Origin: a virus | Reading direction: 5' to 3' (one strand) | Virus record (IMG/VR): IMGVR_UViG_3300008448_000014 | Coordinates: 32,001-96,000 of that record | Length of the DNA stretch: 64,000 nt | Shown here: positions 1,486-64,000 of the stretch, piece by piece | Layout of the letters: the number at the start of each line of letters is the position of its first letter | How positions within the stretch are numbered: position 1 is the stretch's first letter | Program-made: the position numbers and the translations under genes | The notes under the pieces: model-generated | The model's input: only the letters and a program-made list of their open reading frames with translations | Databases searched by the model: none | What the model was told of the DNA's origin: nothing

Positions 1486-2568
1486 TTATATATATTTAAT
1501 TTTGTTTTTATCTATTAATTGAAGTGATTTCTCAAGCCATTTATTTTGAAAAACTTCTGTACTCACAAATATATGTATATGTGAATGATCTGTATCATCT
1601 AGTAAACTTCTTCCTATCATTTGCTCTAAATTTTCTCCATTACCATTAATGGCAGTTATTAATATATTTTGCAATTCTGGAAAAGTTACACCAGCAGAAG
1701 CTTTCTTTAATAAACACAATTGATTTATATCTCCTTGTTGAAATTGTTTTAAAATAGAATCATCTTTACTTTTACTATTGAACATAGGAAGATTATATTT
1801 AAGTCCTGTTTTTTCATCAGAACTAAATAATATAAACCTCTTATCTTTGTTATTGATAATCCATTTGTTTACACATTCAATTAAAGAGTCACATGAATTA
1901 ATAAATCTCATTCTTTCTAAAGACTTAAACATCTTTAGTTGACCACTGCTTTTTAATATAAAAGCACTGAGTCTGTTACATTCTTTTTTCTCTGTTGATT
2001 TCCATTTCTTTACTCTACCATACTCTACTATTTTAGTGTTATTTAAATTATATCTATGTATATAAATAGTAAAATCACTAACAATACCATCTTTAATAGC
2101 TTTGTTAGTAGAATAATCTACTATCAATTTCATTTTAGTAAAAAACTTTATGTCAGCTAAAGTTTCTTTATTATACGTACCAGAAGCAAACATTACATGT
2201 TTATTGTTTTTTGCTATATCTCCTGCAATAGGCATTTGATTTTCTTCTCCAAGAAGATGAGCTTCATCAAATACATAATAATCAGCAATTACTTTTTTGT
2301 TTTTTTCTAAAGACATAAAAGTGGAAAATATAATAATTTGTTTAAAGTTTAATCTATTTATTTCATTTTCCCAAGAAATACGCACGTCTATATTAGGATA
2401 AGCTATAAACACTGTTATTTCTTTATTATTACTATGATTTTTTATTGATTCTAAAATCATTTTTGTTTTTCCTGATCTTACACTAGATAATATAATACCT
2501 TTACAATTATTTTCTATAATAGTATTTTGTATTTTTTCTTGAATTAAATCTTTTTTTGTATTAATCAT
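1486..2568 (-). CDS. Superfamily 2 (DExH) helicase
   Basis: Walker A SVRSGKT, motif II FDEAH, SGT, QMIGRSL; likely start ATG 2568 (MINTKKDLIQ) overlapping the endonuclease stop. Confidence 0.85.
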   Translation of the reverse strand: MINTKKDLIQEKIQNTIIENNCKGIILSSVRSGKTKMILESIKNHSNNKEITVFIAYPNIDVRISWENEINRLNFKQIIIFSTFMSLEKNKKVIADYYVFDEAHLLGEENQMPIAGDIAKNNKHVMFASGTYNKETLADIKFFTKMKLIVDYSTNKAIKDGIVSDFTIYIHRYNLNNTKIVEYGRVKKWKSTEKKECNRLSAFILKSSGQLKMFKSLERMRFINSCDSLIECVNKWIINNKDKRFILFSSDEKTGLKYNLPMFNSKSKDDSILKQFQQGDINQLCLLKKASAGVTFPELQNILITAINGNGENLEQMIGRSLLDDTDHSHIHIFVSTEVFQNKWLEKSLQLIDKNKIKYI

Positions 2569-3313
2569 ATTTATATTTCCATTTAAATCCACAAGATTGT
2601 TTTTGCCTACCTTTTAACGTTGCAGGTATATCTCCTTTAAAAAATTTTTTAGCTTCTGTTACAGTTTTCCATTCTTTAATAAAATTATCATTTAAATCAT
2701 ATTGTATTATAGGTTTTGAAACTCTTTCAGAAACTTTTTTTCTATTCTCAATTGACATACCTTTACCTATATTACCTAGTTTAATTTTTTCTTTAGTAAT
2801 TTCAGATAAAATTCTACCTTTTTTAGCTTTGCTCATTTTTTCACGAGCCTCTTTTGACATTTTTTTACCTTTGTTACCTTGAGAAATTTTTTTCTTAGTA
2901 TCTTCAGTATGTTTTTTATTTAAAAAATGTCCTACATGTCCTAATAATGTTTTAGATATTTTATTTTTAGTTTCTTGTAAAATTATTCTATTACTCATTT
3001 TTTTCTTTGTTTCCTCGCTTACTATTCTAGGTAAAATATCTGTTTCTTGTAATCTACAATTTAACCCTTTAGTGGAAACAACATTAAATAAATCTTGATA
3101 ATATCTTTCTTTAAGATTTAATTGATCATGTTTACATTCTTCAATTATTTCAAAAATATGATTTTCTACGCCATATTTTAAAAAGCTTTTATACAAAATA
3201 GGTTGATTTTTACAAGAAAGATTTTTATAATTTTTAAATCTTTTTTCAATATTAATACTTTGCCCAATGTATATTTTACCACTTGGACTTGTGATTTTAT
3301 AAATTCCTATCAT
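2561..3313 (-). CDS. GIY-YIG homing endonuclease with NUMOD3-like repeats and a C-terminal NUMOD1-like domain
   Basis: MIGIYKITSPSGKIYIGQS; repeated H/SEETKKKIS; PIIQYDLNDNFIKEW...GFKWKY; likely start ATG 3313. Confidence 0.92.
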   Translation of the reverse strand: MIGIYKITSPSGKIYIGQSINIEKRFKNYKNLSCKNQPILYKSFLKYGVENHIFEIIEECKHDQLNLKERYYQDLFNVVSTKGLNCRLQETDILPRIVSEETKKKMSNRIILQETKNKISKTLLGHVGHFLNKKHTEDTKKKISQGNKGKKMSKEAREKMSKAKKGRILSEITKEKIKLGNIGKGMSIENRKKVSERVSKPIIQYDLNDNFIKEWKTVTEAKKFFKGDIPATLKGRQKQSCGFKWKYKYD

Positions 3314-3343
3314 TTTGTATAAAATTAATTTTATACAAAAATA
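3313..3343 (-). promoter_or_regulatory. TATTTTTG -7 box overlapping a perfect 28-bp palindrome that reaches the start codon
   Basis: ttttgtataaaatt|aattttatacaaaa at 3313-3340; box at 3336-3343. Confidence 0.7.
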
Positions 3344-3388
3344 AGTAATTAATATCAATATTTGGACAAAGTATTATTTTTTTTTTAT

Positions 3389-13211: not shown

Positions 13212-15242
13212 TCACTTTGCATCATACCAAGAATTTCCATAATGTGCGTCTGCCTTGATTTTTAATGTTTGTAAATAATGGTTTCCACCTTCAATCATAG
13301 CTTCTTCAACTTTAGTTCTAGCTAATTCTGCTAAATCTACAGGACATTCTATTACTAATTCATCATGTACAGAATTACATATTTTAATTATATTAATATA
13401 ATTATTATCAACTATCCAATCAAAAAGTATTAAAGCACTTCTCTTAATCATCATGGCACTTCTGGCTTGAACAGGGTTGTTAAGGCATAAACGTTGGTAT
13501 TCAGATTTAAGTTTAAAAAATTGACTCACTTCTGTTTTCTTTGACTTATAATATGTCACAGCTTTAGGAAATATATATGTATATTCATTTCCTTTTTCTT
13601 TCTCATCAAACTTCTTTTTATAATCTAATTTACCTTGTTTATATAACTGCCATTGTTCTTTAGTTATAGCCTCAACTTTACCTTTGTATTCATTAAACTT
13701 ATCAAACTTTGGTAGAGCTAGTTTCCAACCATCTGCAGATTCTATATATCCTTGCTTAACAGCTTTATTGAATTCTTCTGCTCCCCATGTATACAATCCT
13801 TCATGAAGTTCTTTAAAAGCATCTTCAATTCTATATGCTTGTACTAATGGTATTCCTTCATTTTGATGAATAGTATATGCAGAACCACCATATTGAAATG
13901 CAAACCTTGGACTCTTTGCTGCTTGTCTTTTAGATTTATGTTCTTTAATGATTGTTTCATCATCAAGTTCTTCTAATTCTGGATATAAAACTCTAGCAAA
14001 AGCACAATGCAAATCATCTCCATTAACTACAGAAGATGTCATTGCAGCATCTCCAGATAAATCTGCAGCTACAACAGTTTCTTGACCACTATAATCACAA
14101 ACAATAATTACATTACCTTTATTAGCTTTAAAACACTTTCTTGTAATACTATCAGAAGGAAAATTTAAAAAGTTTATATTTCCTTTTCTAGTAGATAGTC
14201 TAGCTGTATCAACCATAGGATTAAAGTTAGTGTATATACGTTCATTCTCTATTTGCTTGTATATACTTTCTCCAAAGGTTGTAACTCTATGATTAGCTTC
14301 TTGAAAACTAAGCCACATATCAACAAAATCATGTTTAGATTTCTTTATAATGTTTTCTCCAATACTATCTTTACCATCTTTATCCTTTGTAGGGATACCA
14401 AAAGCATTAAAGACTTTAAGCATTTGTGATGGTGAATTAATAGATACATGTATTCTTTTCTTTGTGTCAAACATATCTATTTGTCCATCTGCAAATTGTG
14501 GAAGATTATCATATATATACTCTTCAATTATAGTTTTCCATTTGAATGTATTTTCTATGTCTTCAACCATTTTATCTTTCCATGATTTAGAGCTAATAGG
14601 AAGCCCACATTGCTCAATATATGCTAAAGCTCTAATATATCTACAATGAAGATTATATGTCTCTGTAAAGCCTCTTTTATTGATTTTAAGCATTAATGCA
14701 TCATGTAACTCAATAAGTCTATCAACATCATTAAATGAATACTCAATTGTACTCTGTTGGCTTAATTTAACTATATGAATATTCTTTTGGTCTGTTTTGT
14801 CATATATAACATCAAGTTCTCTTTCCATCACTTTACCAAAATCATGTCTATAAGGCATAAAGTCTTTATCAACTTGTCCATTATATATAATCTTACTAGC
14901 AAGCATTGTATCTCTAACATCTTTAGGATAGAATCCATACTTATAACAAAACCCTACATCAAATAATGCATTATGAAATATTAATGTCTTGCTCTCTATA
15001 TAAGGAACCAAATCACTAAACTTATAACTATTTTCTCCACTAGTATATAAGTCTATAATATAATTGTTTTTTCCTGTTCCAATTTGTACACAAAATATAT
15101 CACAATGTCTTGGTTGAAGTCCACTAGTTTCTGTGTCTATTCCTATAATATCAGGTAAAATTAAATCAGTTAAATCACAGTAATTATACTTACCAATTTT
15201 TTCAAAATATTTTTTATTTTTAGTTATAATAAAATTTGCCAT
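13212..15242 (-). CDS. polA: Family A DNA polymerase with 3'-5' exonuclease
   Basis: ExoI DTETSG, ExoII HNALFD, ExoIII YSFND, TARLS, motif A DYSGQE, motif B RQAAKSPRFAFQYG, motif C VHDE. Confidence 0.95.
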   Translation of the reverse strand: MANFIITKNKKYFEKIGKYNYCDLTDLILPDIIGIDTETSGLQPRHCDIFCVQIGTGKNNYIIDLYTSGENSYKFSDLVPYIESKTLIFHNALFDVGFCYKYGFYPKDVRDTMLASKIIYNGQVDKDFMPYRHDFGKVMERELDVIYDKTDQKNIHIVKLSQQSTIEYSFNDVDRLIELHDALMLKINKRGFTETYNLHCRYIRALAYIEQCGLPISSKSWKDKMVEDIENTFKWKTIIEEYIYDNLPQFADGQIDMFDTKKRIHVSINSPSQMLKVFNAFGIPTKDKDGKDSIGENIIKKSKHDFVDMWLSFQEANHRVTTFGESIYKQIENERIYTNFNPMVDTARLSTRKGNINFLNFPSDSITRKCFKANKGNVIIVCDYSGQETVVAADLSGDAAMTSSVVNGDDLHCAFARVLYPELEELDDETIIKEHKSKRQAAKSPRFAFQYGGSAYTIHQNEGIPLVQAYRIEDAFKELHEGLYTWGAEEFNKAVKQGYIESADGWKLALPKFDKFNEYKGKVEAITKEQWQLYKQGKLDYKKKFDEKEKGNEYTYIFPKAVTYYKSKKTEVSQFFKLKSEYQRLCLNNPVQARSAMMIKRSALILFDWIVDNNYINIIKICNSVHDELVIECPVDLAELARTKVEEAMIEGGNHYLQTLKIKADAHYGNSWYDAK

Positions 15243-16003
15243 TATTTGTTTCTTTTTACTTTTTTAAAGAATAATCCTTTATAAGATTTGTTATTTTTAA
15301 TTGCTCTAAATATATTTTGATAAGATACTATTTTATTTTTTAAATACTTTTTATTAAATTTTTTAGCATTAATATTGTAAAACTCAATATAATCAGGAAT
15401 TGGTAAATCATTTTCTTTTGTTCTAGAAAATCTATCTATTTCCAAAGTATTATCAAATCTTCTAAAAAAGTTCATATTAATATCATACACTTCTATGTCA
15501 TCAAACATATTTTTTCTAGCATCAGAAATGTTATTACATACTAAACCTTTATTCCAAGAAGGTTTACCTTTTTTAATATTAGATAAATGTTGCCTGTAAT
15601 TTTCATTATTTTTATATCTTTCCTTTAATGTATCACTTATTTTTTTCTTTACATCACTATTACAAGGAGGTTGAGTAGTAACATCACTTATATTGTATCC
15701 ATTTTTAATACTATTAAAAAAGTTTATATAAAAAGATTCTTTTTCTCTTATAAAAGGTATATTATTATTTTCTAATATTTCTATTACAGAAAATTCAAAA
15801 TTTTCTATACCATGTTTTAAAACAGAATTATTTAAATAACTATTATGATGGTTACCTGTCTTAAGTTTTCTTACATGTTCAGTATATCTTCTTTTAAAAG
15901 TCATTTTTGTTGACCCAATGTAAACTTTATTATTTAATAAGTTTTTTATCATATAAACTCCTGAAAGTTTAAATGTTTCTAAATTTGGTATTGCTATTTT
16001 CAT
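15242..16003 (-). CDS. GIY-YIG homing endonuclease
   Basis: SGVYMIKNLLNNKVYIGST...RRYTEH; NUMOD-like PSWNKG; stop overlaps the polA start (TAATG). Confidence 0.9.
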   Translation of the reverse strand: MKIAIPNLETFKLSGVYMIKNLLNNKVYIGSTKMTFKRRYTEHVRKLKTGNHHNSYLNNSVLKHGIENFEFSVIEILENNNIPFIREKESFYINFFNSIKNGYNISDVTTQPPCNSDVKKKISDTLKERYKNNENYRQHLSNIKKGKPSWNKGLVCNNISDARKNMFDDIEVYDINMNFFRRFDNTLEIDRFSRTKENDLPIPDYIEFYNINAKKFNKKYLKNKIVSYQNIFRAIKNNKSYKGLFFKKVKRNK

Positions 16004-59100: not shown

Positions 59101-59420
59101 CACAAATGAAAAAAGGAGGAATCATTAAAGATGATAGAGGACAATGGGAACACCCTGGAGAAATAACAGAAATCAATTCTCCATATATAACAATGAAAGG
59201 AGTACCTTATCCTGTATTAGGAATATCAGATACAGGAGATATGCAAATGATGTACCCAGAAGAAGAATATGAATTTGATGGAGAGAAGGTTACAGAATAC
59301 CCAATGGCAAAAAATGGAAGAAGACAAGAACAAAAAGGTTTGGTTAATCTAGACAATCTACTTAACTTTACAAATTATAATAAACCACAACCAGGTGGAT
59401 GGTTGAACAAATACAATTAA
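56133..59420 (+). CDS. Virion cargo/ejection protein with a zincin metallopeptidase domain
   Basis: TVHELTH plus EPTEIHAR; N-terminal CxC/CxxC; repeated xQxGG motifs. Confidence 0.65.
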   Translation: MSSGKVKCTCGWSWNKSDSSKKDMYICHECGRDNSNNMKNGGWLDNYGTQENYNDYKVSAPEGMVGDGFSNVGRNYSPAWGGSFQEGGEIPNAQSGRATRADSLAVFNNTRAIDDYYRKQGYVKEKVKDSKDYKERIKNRKEWVNSSQKYLKEAKNVPVDIFYTQTDKNKNIAEQKKYLKEAQKRLSETIDENNPKNYIKKLEASKKIFETKAKDIGRYVDEQNNLVEGKPSVEKFYSPIDENKFYQREQSQGFLDLRSPMPLYDKRITPQDLSRFKSPNSVLGEQLLDKIINSKNKKEREALEKQMDALVYSDNVEMYEYDPLAVMPFDMVPLEQQEERIRKYGSSGVPTSIIQQHPDWVNSNTKPISNPTKHNVEGLKPMNVAGLQDVDNRFETNLDIPTPVQRKPKYYNITDVNNQYGGGDTSYRVDSLDELRELPKEQWDRKITPQYQMGGNIYPVNYVPQAQGGMSMPGAVGFSYARIGAPSKGPRRNQTDVTDASAQNGKEMQYYREGLDWKPKSIGQEGTQVVNSRQKRGLDLLVKETNNAKKDREELNTTGQIKKPRSLHYKKLTPKQQPTLSQDKMSVVDRQKANNAMEQVNKEQLGVLERPLIYLASPEKVLGDIGVPGMETSEEDRQKIMVNRYNPYQSNEDRLKNTIEMGLGYVPEATVNTGLAMMGMENPTVGKLANEIFNPLAGIKTSISPELRQGLQTNGFLDMFKSKKPTNISGQDWLHKWNNDPITLNKIAEREKLSESFSHPRFEEAFPEYPVIREGQLADKELNDIKTKFINSISNERSFPINTDVKKIPVLSYEDLKINDPKTYEESINTTVGVSPGRGKVYIDDAQFKNQPSKTKESATVHELTHFLENNGSNLTINEQKELLAPFGKNNFQLDRPTWDGKIYDESYYTEPTEIHARMNEARFQLGLSPKDKFTEEMFNKVSKENNWEGMGEYIKDKKGFIDLMNNFWAVPPVVIGAGALQQTNQEEAPQMKKGGIIKDDRGQWEHPGEITEINSPYITMKGVPYPVLGISDTGDMQMMYPEEEYEFDGEKVTEYPMAKNGRRQEQKGLVNLDNLLNFTNYNKPQPGGWLNKYN

Positions 59421-59422
59421 TC

Positions 59423-62400
59423 ATGAAAGCACAAATTTTAAAAATCGCTGGTGTTAAATCTGAAAAGGAGTTCTACAAGAAGTATCCTTCTGAAGAAGCA
59501 TTCATGAAAAAGCATGGTAAAGAGTTTAAGAAAGCTCAAACAGCTAATGCTATTGATAAAGCACAACTTGGTGCTGATATAAATAAAAATGGAATTCCAG
59601 ATTATTTAGAGTTAAATCCTCCTACTTCTAATCAAGCATTTGGTCCACAGAATCAATGGAACTTTGGTAACAACATATCAAACACTCCTTCATTTGGTGC
59701 ACCTAGTGTACAACAAATGGCTGATAATACTTTCCAGCCTGCAGCAGATCCTTTTGCTATGCAAAACTATGGTAATCAATTTGTACAAAATAATCCATTA
59801 CCAGCTAACAATCCTAATTCACAATTTTCTAATAGTGTATTTCTAGAAGATAAATCTGTTACAGGTGGTTTAGGTGGTAAAGATTATGGTAAAGGAGATG
59901 GTATGTCAAAAGCTATGCCTTATGTTAATGCAGGTATGGATGTTATACAAGGTATTAGTGAGATTAAAAGACAAAAAGAAAGAAAAAGAGCAGCTAAACA
60001 AAATTCTTTAGTTACAGGTAAATTAGCAGAAGCTGAAGAAAGTGTTGATGTAGATGCTGAAAGACAACGTCAAGACTACGCTACTAGAAAAAGAAATGCT
60101 TTTATGGCTCCTCAAGTAGGAGAATCTTTATTTCCTGTAATAGGTGTAGGTTCTAACCCTCTTGCTCAATATGGTGGAGAGATACAAAATACATATGCTC
60201 CTAAATATGATATATATGATGATGGAGGATATGAACCATTAAATGATAGTGATAAAGTTAAAACTTATCAAATGGGTGGAAACTTTTCTGAAAAATATGG
60301 AGAATATGCACAATATGAGCCATATGCTACAGCATTAAGTAATAGATTCTTAAATCAAGGTGGACAACCTGATGCAGGTTCTATGATTGGTGGTGGAATT
60401 GGTAGTGCAGCAGGTACAGCTATTGGAGGACCATTAGGAGGAGCTATTGGTAAATTTGCTGGCAGTGCTATTGGTGGCCTTATTGATACTACTGATAGAG
60501 ATATTAAAAAATTTCAAAATGAATCTCAAAGAAACATAGGTAGAGTAACAGGACAAGCTTTTCGTAAAGGAATACAAGACCAAAATCAATCTTATATGGA
60601 AGATGGTGGCTATGTAAGTAATGATTGGACTCCACAAGTGATTGCTAAATTTGGTGATCACACAGCAGAAGACTATTATAACTATGCTCATGAATATGAT
60701 ACACTAAGAGCAGGAGGACATGTTAAGTCTGAACAATACACACCTGTAAGTAATAGAGGAATGGAAACTGCTGCATTAGGTGGTAGTGTAAAAACATTAT
60801 GGGGTGGTGAAGTTAAACCAATTTCTTATAATCCATATATGCCTAACTCTGGAGAAACAGTTAATTTCTATGGACAATCACATGATGATGGTGGTATAGG
60901 TGTTAAATATGGACAAGGTGGTGAATCTCAACAAGGAGAAGAAGCTAGTGTAGAAGTAGAAAGAGGAGAACCTTCTTTTGAGATGATAGATCCTAATACA
61001 GGAAATCCTACATTAAATGTTCTTGGAGATAGAAAGGTACATGCTAGCTTTGCAAAGCAATTAGGTGATCCAGATTTGATTAAAATTGCTAAACAATATG
61101 ATGGTAAGAAATTTAAAAATATTGGCTTAGAACTCTCTAAAAAAGAAAATAAATATACTTCTGTAATTGATAAAAATACTAAAGAGTTAAATGATTTAAC
61201 TCCTAAAAATCAATTTGATAAATTAAAGCTTAATGCATTAGAAAAAAATATTGAAGGAGCTCATTTAGGTCTTAAGCAAATTGCTGATACTAAAATGACT
61301 CTTACACATTTTCAAAATGCTATTAATGATACAGCTGATGAACTAGGAGAAAACTTAGGGAAAGATATTAGCTCAAGTAATCTTAATAAAGGAAAAGTTA
61401 TGTTTGGAAAAGACAAAGGACAAATTGCTAAATATGGTGCTACAGTTAAAAAAGCACAAGATGGTACTACTACAAGTACACCTAAGTTAACAAAAGAACA
61501 ATATCAAGAGTTACAAGATGCTTATATAAAATCTAAAGTTGCGCAGAAGGGTCCTGAAGTTGAAGGTTTTCAAAAATTGTTTCATAAATATTTTCCAAAA
61601 GAAGCTGTAGATATTATTAAGAAAGCTGGAAAAGATAGAGGTATTACAACAAGAGGTGTTGAATTAGGATTAACTAAGGAAGAGTTAGAAAAAGGAGAAA
61701 ACTCTGCTAAGATATTAGGAAGTAATGAGGAAGGTATATTTGGTCCTAGAACTGAACAATATTGGAAAACAGCTAGTGATGCATATAATCAGTCTCTTAC
61801 TACACCAGCAATTACACAAACAACTGCTGCTAAGCAAGAAGAAGATAAAGTTTATGATGTTAAAGCTAATAAGAGAAATCCTTATATTGATGCTGGTAAT
61901 CAAATTCTTAGATATTTAAGACCTAGTGATGCTGAAGAATTAGATCCTAATCAATTATATGGAGAACTATATGGTTTAGCAAATAATCAAGTTGAACCTG
62001 TACAAGCACAATTCTATCGTCCAGAATTAAATGTTCCTTATGATATTAATAGACAAGCTGCTAAGAATGATTTAGTAGCACAAACAAGAGCTGCTCAAAG
62101 AATGGTTGGATATAATCCAGCTGCACAAGCTATGATTGCTGCACAGGCTTATAATCCTATGCAACAATTAAATGAACAAGATTTTATAGATAATCAAAGA
62201 ATGAAAGATCAGGTGTATTCTGGTAACAGAGCTACATTAAATGATGCTCAACTTAAAAACTTAGCTATAGCTGATAATCAATATACAAGACAAGAAGCAG
62301 CTAAGAGTAATACTAAAGCAATTAATCAAGCTGCTCTTAATTCTATTGCTAGTAAATATGCACAAAACAAATTAGAAAACAGAACATTAAGAACATATGA

Positions 62401-62662
62401 GAATATGTACAATTATAGATTTGGTGATGATTTTGTTGCAGATAATTACAATGGAATATTCCAAGCTAATATGCCTAGTGTATATGATAAAGGAAGTAAG
62501 AAAGCTAATATGGTTCCTGTACTTAACTCTAAAGGAGAAACTATACGTTTTCAAGAAGTTGATGCAACAGAAGATGAACTAACTCCTATCCCTTCTTTAG
62601 CTACCAACCCTATAAAAGCAGCTAAAAATGGTTCTATTGTTAGTGCATACAAAAAACTATAA
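59423..62662 (+). CDS. Virion cargo/ejection protein with Gly-rich hydrophobic segment
   Basis: GGGIGSAAGTAIGGPLGGAIG glycine zipper, GQSHDDGG..VEVERGE, xQxGG motifs; likely start ATG 59423. Confidence 0.65.
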   Translation: MKAQILKIAGVKSEKEFYKKYPSEEAFMKKHGKEFKKAQTANAIDKAQLGADINKNGIPDYLELNPPTSNQAFGPQNQWNFGNNISNTPSFGAPSVQQMADNTFQPAADPFAMQNYGNQFVQNNPLPANNPNSQFSNSVFLEDKSVTGGLGGKDYGKGDGMSKAMPYVNAGMDVIQGISEIKRQKERKRAAKQNSLVTGKLAEAEESVDVDAERQRQDYATRKRNAFMAPQVGESLFPVIGVGSNPLAQYGGEIQNTYAPKYDIYDDGGYEPLNDSDKVKTYQMGGNFSEKYGEYAQYEPYATALSNRFLNQGGQPDAGSMIGGGIGSAAGTAIGGPLGGAIGKFAGSAIGGLIDTTDRDIKKFQNESQRNIGRVTGQAFRKGIQDQNQSYMEDGGYVSNDWTPQVIAKFGDHTAEDYYNYAHEYDTLRAGGHVKSEQYTPVSNRGMETAALGGSVKTLWGGEVKPISYNPYMPNSGETVNFYGQSHDDGGIGVKYGQGGESQQGEEASVEVERGEPSFEMIDPNTGNPTLNVLGDRKVHASFAKQLGDPDLIKIAKQYDGKKFKNIGLELSKKENKYTSVIDKNTKELNDLTPKNQFDKLKLNALEKNIEGAHLGLKQIADTKMTLTHFQNAINDTADELGENLGKDISSSNLNKGKVMFGKDKGQIAKYGATVKKAQDGTTTSTPKLTKEQYQELQDAYIKSKVAQKGPEVEGFQKLFHKYFPKEAVDIIKKAGKDRGITTRGVELGLTKEELEKGENSAKILGSNEEGIFGPRTEQYWKTASDAYNQSLTTPAITQTTAAKQEEDKVYDVKANKRNPYIDAGNQILRYLRPSDAEELDPNQLYGELYGLANNQVEPVQAQFYRPELNVPYDINRQAAKNDLVAQTRAAQRMVGYNPAAQAMIAAQAYNPMQQLNEQDFIDNQRMKDQVYSGNRATLNDAQLKNLAIADNQYTRQEAAKSNTKAINQAALNSIASKYAQNKLENRTLRTYENMYNYRFGDDFVADNYNGIFQANMPSVYDKGSKKANMVPVLNSKGETIRFQEVDATEDELTPIPSLATNPIKAAKNGSIVSAYKKL

Positions 62663-62727
62663 TAATTTTAATTAAAATGAATTAACTAATTGCATTATGT
62701 AGTATTGGAAGATTTAATTTTTTCTAT

Positions 62728-62735
62728 TACATTTG
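62728..62735 (+). promoter_or_regulatory. -7 box TACATTTG
   Basis: TAnnTTTG consensus, 16 nt before ATG 62752. Confidence 0.6.
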
Positions 62736-62751
62736 CTAATAAATATTTGAT

Positions 62752-63372
62752 ATGGCTTCATTTACAGGAATTATATATTTAACAACAAATTTAATAAATG
62801 GTAAAATTTATATAGGACAAAGTTTTTCTACTAGTTGTTACTATAAAGGAGGAGGAAGTGCCTTAAAAAAAGCTATAGCTAAATATGGTAAATGTAATTT
62901 TAAAAAACAAATTTTAATAGATAATGTAGAAACAGCTAATCAATTAAATTGTTTAGAAAAATTTTATATTAAATTATATGATTCTTCAAATAAAACTATA
63001 GGATATAATATAAGAGAAGGTGGTGAAAATAAAGCTTTTAAACACACAAAAGAAGCAAAACTTAAAATTATAGAAAGAAGTAACCAATCAGATAATAAAA
63101 AAAGAATAAAAGAAATACAAAAATTAGCAGCAATTTCTAGAGTAGGAACACATCATACAACTTTTTCTAAATTAAAAATGTTAACAACAAAATTTGGAAG
63201 ATTAAAAGAAATTGAAATTTATGATAAAGAAAATAATTTATTGTATACTTGTAATTTTTCTACAGAAGCTGAAAAATTAACTAATGTTAAATCATCTGGT
63301 ATAAGAAATAACCTATCTGGATTATCACAATCTGCAGGTGGATTTGTTTTCAGATATAAAAATATAAAATAA
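62752..63372 (+). CDS. GIY-YIG (Seg-like) homing endonuclease fused to the first codons of its target gene
   Basis: MASFT-GIIYLTTNLINGKIYIGQ; YKGGG; C-terminal IEIYDKENNLL...AGGFVFRY. Confidence 0.9.
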   Translation: MASFTGIIYLTTNLINGKIYIGQSFSTSCYYKGGGSALKKAIAKYGKCNFKKQILIDNVETANQLNCLEKFYIKLYDSSNKTIGYNIREGGENKAFKHTKEAKLKIIERSNQSDNKKRIKEIQKLAAISRVGTHHTTFSKLKMLTTKFGRLKEIEIYDKENNLLYTCNFSTEAEKLTNVKSSGIRNNLSGLSQSAGGFVFRYKNIK

Positions 63373-64000
63373 TGAGTTCATTTACAGATAACCCTCAAGC
63401 ACTTTCCACATTTAATCCATACATTCAACAGCTCCCTGTTGAAGCTATGGTTAAAGTTGGTATGCAAAAACAACAACAGTATGATGAGGGTATACAAAAA
63501 ATACAAACTAATATAGATAACATTGCTGGTCTAGATGTTGTAAGAGATGTTGATAAAGCATATTTACAAACTAAAATTAATGAGCTGGGAAACAATTTAA
63601 AAATTGTAGGAGCTGGAGATTTTTCAGATTTCCAACTTGTTAATTCTGTTAATGGAATGACTACTCAAATAGCAAAAGATCCTAATGTTCAAAACGCTGT
63701 TTCTTCTACAGCTAAACTTAGAAAAGAACAAGCAAGAAAAGAAAAAGCTATACAAGATGGTAAGTCTTCTCCAGATAATGAATGGTTTTTTGGTAAACAA
63801 GTTTCAAATTATTTAAATGATTCAAATTTAGATCAATCTTTTAATGGCCAATATATAGAATATAAAGACGTAGATAAGAAACTTAGAGCTTTAGCATCTG
63901 ATTTACAAAAAGCTGGAGTTGATACAACTATTGATAATCCTTTTAAAAGAGATAATTTAACAGGCAAAACTCTTTATTATAATAAAGATGGTTCTGTTTC
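63372..64000 (+). CDS. Large virion cargo protein, 5' part (runs off window end; not in the ORF track)
   Basis: MSSFTDNPQALSTFNPYIQQLPVEAMVKVGMQKQQQYD...; TAATG overlap with the endonuclease stop; open to the window end. Confidence 0.8.
   Translation, partial: MSSFTDNPQALSTFNPYIQQLPVEAMVKVGMQKQQQYDEGIQKIQTNIDNIAGLDVVRDVDKAYLQTKINELGNNLKIVGAGDFSDFQLVNSVNGMTTQIAKDPNVQNAVSSTAKLRKEQARKEKAIQDGKSSPDNEWFFGKQVSNYLNDSNLDQSFNGQYIEYKDVDKKLRALASDLQKAGVDTTIDNPFKRDNLTGKTLYYNKDGSV

Follow-up and report, generated by a model that had tools for sequence, protein, structure and literature searches.

A GIY-YIG endonuclease gene that begins with the first codons of the structural gene behind it in a crAss-like phage

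The endonuclease gene and its neighbours

The window, that is, the whole stretch of 64,000 nucleotides that we analysed, comprises bases 32001-96000 of a complete 113,909-bp virus record (IMG/VR IMGVR_UViG_3300008448_000014) with direct terminal repeats and a genome GC of about 28%. A 1925-aa protein matches the Crassvirus muzzle family (crAss_MUZ, PF25731; HMM match, 1.5e-34), and the phage is therefore regarded as crAss-like. The hallmark virion genes of the Crassvirales are present: besides the muzzle match, PHROG matches identify terminase, portal and capsid genes. Parts of the stretch occur in 20 sequencing runs from freshwater, river and wastewater metagenomes, with no RNA run listed among them, and a search of INPHARED returned no close phage record.

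On the 3' side of the muzzle gene, genes for proteins of 307, 224, 1095 and 1087 aa are followed by the endonuclease gene, by the gene for an 875-aa protein (P0001) and by one of 4266 aa. The 1087-aa structural-block gene, taken from the ORF list, spans 59399..62662 on the + strand; its 3' end and the spacer behind it form the left homology arm, which aligns with endonuclease-free relatives. The displaced 875-aa structural gene thus lies between the muzzle-gene block and the 4266-aa ORF. The window holds its 5' part (63372..64000, + strand), and the gene ends at genome position 97999, 1,999 bases beyond the window end. Its 5' coding block is strongly conserved; its leader is not. The 4266-aa ORF (genome 98006-110806, beyond the window; L339) carries a C-terminal NADAR domain (PF08719, 2.1e-14, residues 4085-4223).

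Searches with P0001 returned no PDB sequence relative, no Pfam family and no PHROG family. An earlier reading of this DNA from the sequence alone (hereafter, the sequence-only reading) had called it an essential cargo gene. The gene order, with P0001 positioned after the muzzle gene, fits this label, and a language-model feature match to cargo protein reached 0.92; however, PF25712 (crAss_CARGO2, Crassvirus cargo protein 2) matched neither P0001 nor anything else genome-wide at E up to 1, and the control genomes were likewise without a match. We use "cargo" only as a reading of the gene order and the language-model match.

The GIY-YIG homing endonuclease gene, identified by phrog_314, Foldseek and 38 close homologues, encodes 206 aa and occupies 62752..63372 (+ strand), with its stop codon TAA at 63370-63372. 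Its first 16 bases (62752..62767, + strand) read ATG GCT TCA TTT ACA G, which encodes MASFT plus the G of a sixth codon, and correspond to the native ATG, codons 2-5 and base 1 of codon 6 of the structural gene. The structural gene itself starts anew at 63372..63387 (+ strand) with ATG AGT TCA TTT ACA G (MSSFT, then D), where codon 2 is AGT (Ser) instead of GCT (Ala). The two 16-base starts are identical at 14 positions. They share the 11-mer TTCATTTACAG, which begins at 62757 and at 63377, occupies bases +6 to +16 of both adjacent ORFs and occurs exactly twice in the whole 113,909-bp genome. Between them, the stop and the second start overlap in TAATG (63370..63374, + strand), the last A of TAA being the A of the next ATG; this is presumably a termination-reinitiation coupling site. 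The repeat, the MASFT and MSSFT starts and the overlap had all been reported in the sequence-only reading and were confirmed in the sequence. The insertion point lies 16 bases inside the structural gene. The GC content of the endonuclease gene is 22%, against 30-32% in both flanking genes, and in all seven genomes compared it lies below both flanks by 6-13 points.

The Bacteroidota promoter consensus is TTTG / TAnnTTTG, for the -33 and -7 elements, respectively. A -7 box of this type, TACATTTG, lies at 62728..62735 (+ strand), 16 bases ahead of the endonuclease ATG; its homologue precedes the structural gene in endonuclease-free relatives. The sequence-only reading had begun the feature at 62728; this is the first base of the promoter-like box but falls outside the ORF, whose ATG is at 62752. 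Twenty bases upstream of the box, a TTG at 62705..62707 (+ strand) can be read as a possible -33 element. A TAnnTTTG box precedes the endonuclease ATG in 8/8 occupied loci, and none is present inside the endonuclease gene of the window. In the occupied locus L292, such a box lies 19 bases before the regenerated start, and some lineages may, like L292, have regained a promoter for the displaced gene. In every occupied locus, endonuclease and target gene either overlap at their stop and start codons (TAATG-type or ATGA) or are separated by 1-2 bases. At L170:3116-3135 the regenerated start is TTG (TAA AA TTG GCA AGC TAT), with no in-frame ATG available.

The encoded protein has the N-terminal alpha/beta catalytic fold of the GIY-YIG enzymes, as indicated by phrog_314 ("homing endonuclease"; 5e-23, residues 6-194), AlphaFold and Foldseek, whereas the Pfam GIY-YIG models stay below their cut-offs (PF19835, 17.4 bits against 25). 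In the AlphaFold model, built with 37 relatives (mean pLDDT 82), residues 1-5 are coil, strand 1 starts at residue 6, and helices and a small C-terminal module come after the nuclease. The three top-ranked Foldseek matches are to the catalytic domain of I-TevI (1mk0/1ln0; probability 1.0, target-normalised TM 0.60-0.63). Y9, Y20, E69 and N86 are invariant in 37 sequences; the segment where an equivalent of the catalytic Arg of I-TevI would be expected has no invariant Arg in these sequences. The protein therefore resembles I-TevI, the intron-encoded GIY-YIG enzyme of phage T4, in its catalytic domain and two-domain layout, but is not located in an intron, is shorter and lacks an evident Arg/His segment.

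Relatives with and without the endonuclease

All 38 close homologues of the endonuclease (56-96% identity) begin with MAS[FWY]xG or a drifted form of it (MPDFNG, MTSFNG). The DNA context was read for eight distinct loci, namely the window's own locus, the L010 group, L012, L170, L171, L218, L292 and L337, and at all eight the endonuclease precedes the same gene. Another 29, more distant homologues lie at other loci and start with M(I/V)(I/V)YKTTN, without the prefix; their Met aligns with G6 of this protein. From this comparison, the MASFT-type prefix appears to belong to the locus and not to the fold, since it is confined to the clade at this site. Close homologues that begin MASFT at unrelated loci, which the sequence-only reading had named as evidence that would count against it, were not encountered. 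Scans for further loci with a profile of the endonuclease alignment were dominated by generic GIY-YIG genes, and two C-terminal DNA patterns recovered the known loci, L334 and one chance match (L335) only.

IMG/VR searches with the downstream protein yielded 7 and then 80 loci; 74 of the 80 are without the endonuclease and represent 53 distinct alleles. The sequence-only reading had predicted that such relatives would carry the promoter joined directly to an unbroken gene start, and this joined allele was found, with the box followed by ATG GCN TCN TTY/TGG/TAY ACN GAY, as exemplified by ATGGCTTCATTTACAGAC in L293 and ATGGCTTCATTCACAGAC in L007. TAnnTTTG lies 7-40 bases before the ATG in 53/53 alleles, and the consensus of the starts is ATG GCN TCN (TTT/TGG/TAY) NNN GAY, with Ala at codon 2 in 52 of the 53; the proteins begin MASFTD, MASYTD or MASWTD, with minor variants.

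Three comparisons of loci with and without the endonuclease (the window's own locus with L254; L269 with L281, L318 and L330; L292 with L303) define the borders of the insert. In each, the left BLAST alignment ends at base 16 of the endonuclease ORF and the right alignment starts at base 10 of the downstream gene, which gives an overlap of 7 bases. The left flanks are 100% identical over their last 120-180 bases between L269 and L281/L318/L330 and between L292 and L303, and the endonuclease is present or absent among flanks that are 94-100% identical. The insertion site is fixed at the same base, as judged from eight distinct occupied loci and 53 distinct empty alleles.

Beyond this site, identity between L269 and L318/L330, and between L292 and L303, falls from 85-100% to about 50% some 300-350 bases into the target gene, which marks a mosaic boundary inside the 875-aa gene. 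Among the endonuclease-free alleles (L254-L333, base 2507-2509), the Ser codon 3 is TCN in 42 and AGY in 10 of 53, and one empty allele, L266, has Gly at codon 2, as in occupied alleles. The AGY alleles and the Gly of L266 could be resistance alleles or footprints of endonuclease loss.

The captured prefix covaries with the gene behind it. Residue 4 is the same in the prefix and in the downstream gene in 8/8 loci (F/F in six, W/W in one and Y/Y in one). Counted by hand, eight such matches correspond to one of 56 distinct label pairings, a chance of about 0.018. In L010, both copies read TGG GCA, as does the endonuclease-free relative L281. Residue 5 is the same in 6/8 loci and has drifted in L218, which holds a remnant, and in L337 (MPDFN).

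Codons 2-3 behave differently. The left copy has GCT TCA in the window's own locus, the L010 group, L012 and L170, where the regenerated start has AGT TCA, AGC AGC, GCA AGT and GCA AGC, respectively. In L171, GCT TCT on the left faces GGA TCT in the regenerated start. GCA AGT faces GGA TCA in L218 and GGT TCA in L292, and CCA GAT faces GGA TCA in L337. When L315, described below, is included, the regenerated start differs from the left copy at codons 2-3 in 9/9 loci, and codon 2 of the target gene is other than Ala in 7/9 loci with the endonuclease against 1/53 alleles without it (Fisher p = 6e-7). The direct repeat that remains after recoding is 7-11 bases long. The type of codons 2-3 follows the endonuclease clade, pairing the window's own locus with L292 and L012 with L170. 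L170 has other partners in the endonuclease tree (97/95 support) than in the target-gene tree. These patterns suggest that the element carries the ATG and codons 2-3 along, whereas codons 4-5 are those of the recipient lineage.

Further endonuclease genes and remnants were observed. L218:2501-2734 encodes a 77-aa endonuclease remnant at the same site, with an in-frame deletion of roughly residues 60-183; its prefix is MASFQ and the downstream gene starts MGSFTD. By its sequence, it is best described as a decaying copy. In another phage, the same slot holds a second GIY-YIG gene (L315:1840-2520) that is about 23% identical. This gene starts GTG GCT TGT ATA TAC (VACIYKI..) right after the box TAAATTTG and ends ..GGYIFKFKKLD, with TAATG leading into a target gene that starts MGSYTD; it seems to keep only about two captured codons.

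The two other GIY-YIG genes of the window have nothing in common with their neighbours' starts, so that start capture as a general habit of this phage's endonucleases was rejected. One of them (15242-16003, - strand; 253 aa, PF01541 9.6e-10) lies directly upstream of a family A DNA polymerase gene (13212-15242, - strand); the two overlap in TAATG, and their start codons are not in common. The other (2561-3358, - strand) carries NUMOD3 and NUMOD1 motifs, and its real start is probably an internal MIGIYKI. A pair of ORFs outside the window (genome 7341-7817 and 8776-9426) have the common start M(P/A)TFIK(A/V)GFW, identical at 15/18 bases. Their products are apparently fibre-like paralogues that share an N-terminal anchor, and the pair was rejected as an endonuclease-related case.

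Origin and maintenance of the repeated start

Taken together, we consider it very probable that a GIY-YIG gene took over the promoter, ATG and codons 2-5 of its target gene and regenerated a recoded start of that gene behind itself. The sequence-only reading had proposed such a takeover with regeneration of the start. The joined alleles support this, but the regenerated start is no plain copy, being recoded at codons 2-3, and use of the captured promoter is what we infer from the arrangement.

We propose that a free-standing GIY-YIG gene inserted after base 16 of a conserved crAss-like structural gene in the "cargo" block. The endonuclease would have lost its own Met and would be read from the target's promoter, short leader, ATG and codons 2-5, the captured codons forming an unstructured MASFT tag ahead of strand 1 of the nuclease fold. 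The displaced gene would have acquired a new ATG and codons 2-5 immediately behind the endonuclease. Most likely, the displaced gene is co-transcribed with the endonuclease and translated by termination-reinitiation, because stop and start either overlap or lie no more than 2 bases apart at every locus, and L170 even has TTG as its start. Such coupling would be well matched to a Bacteroidota host in which initiation does not rely on Shine-Dalgarno sites.

The conserved 5' coding block of the target gene would be typical ground for a homing site, which insertion at base 16 would split. A regenerated start would then recreate the endonuclease target beside the conserved downstream coding block, and this may be why codons 2-3 are always recoded (Ala to Ser or Gly; Ser TCN to AGY). 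Recoding at these codons is expected if their bases matter for recognition or cleavage. Most likely, the recoding protects the resident genome from self-cleavage, or shortens a deletion-prone direct repeat, or does both.

The matched codons 4-5 call for a further step, as simple double-strand-break repair alone does not account for a match in both copies. Most plausibly, both arms, which overlap the same 7 bases of the empty allele, are kept like it. They could be kept matched by recombination up to the edge of the heterology or at each invasion; a wide staggered cut would be a more exotic option.

The last of these possibilities can be extended to a distinct homing strategy, which we regard as conceivable but doubtful. 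Base 17 of the left copy and codon 3 of the regenerated start would bound the mobile unit, and with every invasion the recipient would supply the 7 bases of codons 4-5 on both sides, for instance by way of two-ended priming or a staggered cut of unusual width. The footprint would resemble a target-site duplication, which to our knowledge has never been described for GIY-YIG enzymes. An arms race between target and element would, under such a strategy, flip the Ser codon between TCN and AGY and change Ala to Ser or Gly at codon 2. On the same conjecture, selfish genes might resort to start capture more widely in those Bacteroidota phages that lack Shine-Dalgarno sites.

Between lineages, the endonucleases are 52-68% identical in amino acid sequence and the N-terminal 150 aa of the target proteins 54-71%. 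Because the two divergences are alike, the fusion appears to be old and stable, and long vertical inheritance with losses would fit as well as recent spread between distant lineages. Presence or absence among close flanks and the decayed copy of L218 fit the gain and loss cycle of homing endonucleases, of which active homing would be a part.

The fused gene could also have ceased to be mobile altogether. It would then be a domesticated or tolerated gene that entered once, long ago, and has since been passed on vertically, with occasional losses through recombination between the short direct repeats; ordinary recombination between the flanks and endonuclease-free kin would account for the matching codons. 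The similar divergence of endonuclease and flanks, in which hardly any endonucleases stand out as far closer to each other than their flanks are, is in keeping with this, as are the largely congruent endonuclease and target-gene trees and the conservation of an intact family of about 205 aa across 38 members. However, the endonuclease comes and goes among flanks of 94-100% identity, L218 is decaying, and L170 changes partners between the trees while its codons 2-3 follow the endonuclease clade. Moreover, the low GC persists, and consistent recoding of codons 2-3 is hard to explain without pressure from the nuclease. We therefore consider the loss of mobility improbable.

A group I intron, with its ORF in frame with a 16-base upstream exon, would restore MASFTD by splicing and make the second ATG incidental. 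The insert does lie inside a coding sequence, and intron ORFs that continue the reading frame of the upstream exon are known, for example from many mitochondrial introns. Yet the ORF fills 618 of the about 620 bases of the insert, which leaves no room for a ribozyme core, and a search of 62500-63600 against Rfam, with its intron families, gave no match at E up to 1; on these two grounds we rejected the intron. The GC of the insert (22%) also argues against it, and the preservation of a second start M-(A/S/G)-S with a stop/start overlap in every lineage indicates that this start is translated. The probability left to splicing is very small.

It is just as hard to believe that the shared start arose by coincidence or convergence, that is, that both genes use the same first codons for initiation or as an N-terminal signal and no insertion took place. 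Several ORFs of this genome do start MA.., and small residues are generally favoured at position 2. However, when the first 16 bases of the endonuclease are compared with the starts of the genome's 121 ATG-initiated ORFs of 80 aa or more, the downstream gene comes out on top at 14/16; the next reaches 12/16 and most 6-7. Furthermore, homology with the endonuclease-free alleles is unbroken between the promoter and base 16, where it ends, the prefix and the neighbouring gene vary together across lineages, and the two other GIY-YIG genes of the window share nothing with their neighbours' starts. An intein was rejected, as the two ORFs are in different frames with a stop codon between them.

Comparison with known systems and significance

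Homing endonuclease genes are usually pictured in introns, inteins and intergenic gaps, where they spare the host gene. Insertions that split a phage gene are also known, such as mobE in nrdA of phage Aeh1. The endonucleases of ICP1 are nuclease genes at recombination boundaries (PMC10448857). These gene-splitting and boundary endonucleases resemble the present case in their insertion within or at the edge of an essential gene that still functions; in-frame deletions and decay of copies, as well as a sharp fall in similarity a few hundred bases away, are further common features (PMC10448857). They differ in leaving two host polypeptides or in being intergenic, and none is described as reusing the host's start codons with a regenerated, recoded start.

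T4-like phages carry free-standing endonuclease genes, seg (GIY-YIG) and mob (HNH), next to conserved phage genes, and the presence of these genes differs from one relative to the next (PMC2988022). The seg and mob genes are comparable to this element in the I-TevI-like N-terminal nuclease fold and in stop/start overlaps that suggest translational coupling. There, the endonuclease is the downstream, weakly coupled partner, as in the UAAUGA of nrdA-mobE, and is placed between genes (PMC2988022). Here, in contrast, it is upstream, as the partner with primary initiation, and is fused to the first codons of its target, while the host gene is the coupled one.

The closest parallel is offered by the mORF hybrid genes of fungal mitochondria, namely atp6 of Allomyces macrogynus and atp6, atp9, cox2 and nad3 of Glomus (PMC3630166, citing Paquin et al. 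1994). In these genes, an endonuclease ORF lies in frame at one end of an essential gene, and a short terminal segment of the host gene is present twice; one of the two agrees with the endonuclease-free relative, and the other has diverged and apparently travels with the element (PMC3630166). The same division is seen here: the left copy is identical to endonuclease-free kin, and the right copy departs from them at codons 2-3, where it tracks the endonuclease clade. However, the mORFs, on the same account, duplicate the C-terminus, with the endonuclease read on from the end of the host gene, whereas here the duplication covers 16 bases of the N-terminus, promoter and ATG go to the endonuclease, and the host gene has to start again behind it. 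A phage host, a far shorter duplicated piece and overlapping stop and start codons between the ORFs further set this locus apart from the mORFs as described there (PMC3630166). By analogy, then, it is an N-terminal mirror image of the mORF hybrid genes and not one of them. A full-text literature search found no description of N-terminal start capture.

Our data point to a selfish gene that moved into the first codons of a conserved virion gene and would take both its promoter and its initiation site, leaving the host gene dependent on the endonuclease for translation. The family thus offers a natural example of how selfish genes could be expressed in hosts without ribosome-binding sites. It also illustrates how regeneration of a gene start would force recoding of the target, a built-in immunity mark that points to the recognition bases, and how short overlapping homology arms stay matched across lineages. 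A defined natural target of 20-40 bp is predicted for this compact 206-aa nuclease. As the mirror of the C-terminal hybrid genes of fungal mitochondria, the locus suggests a general rule for endonucleases at gene ends.
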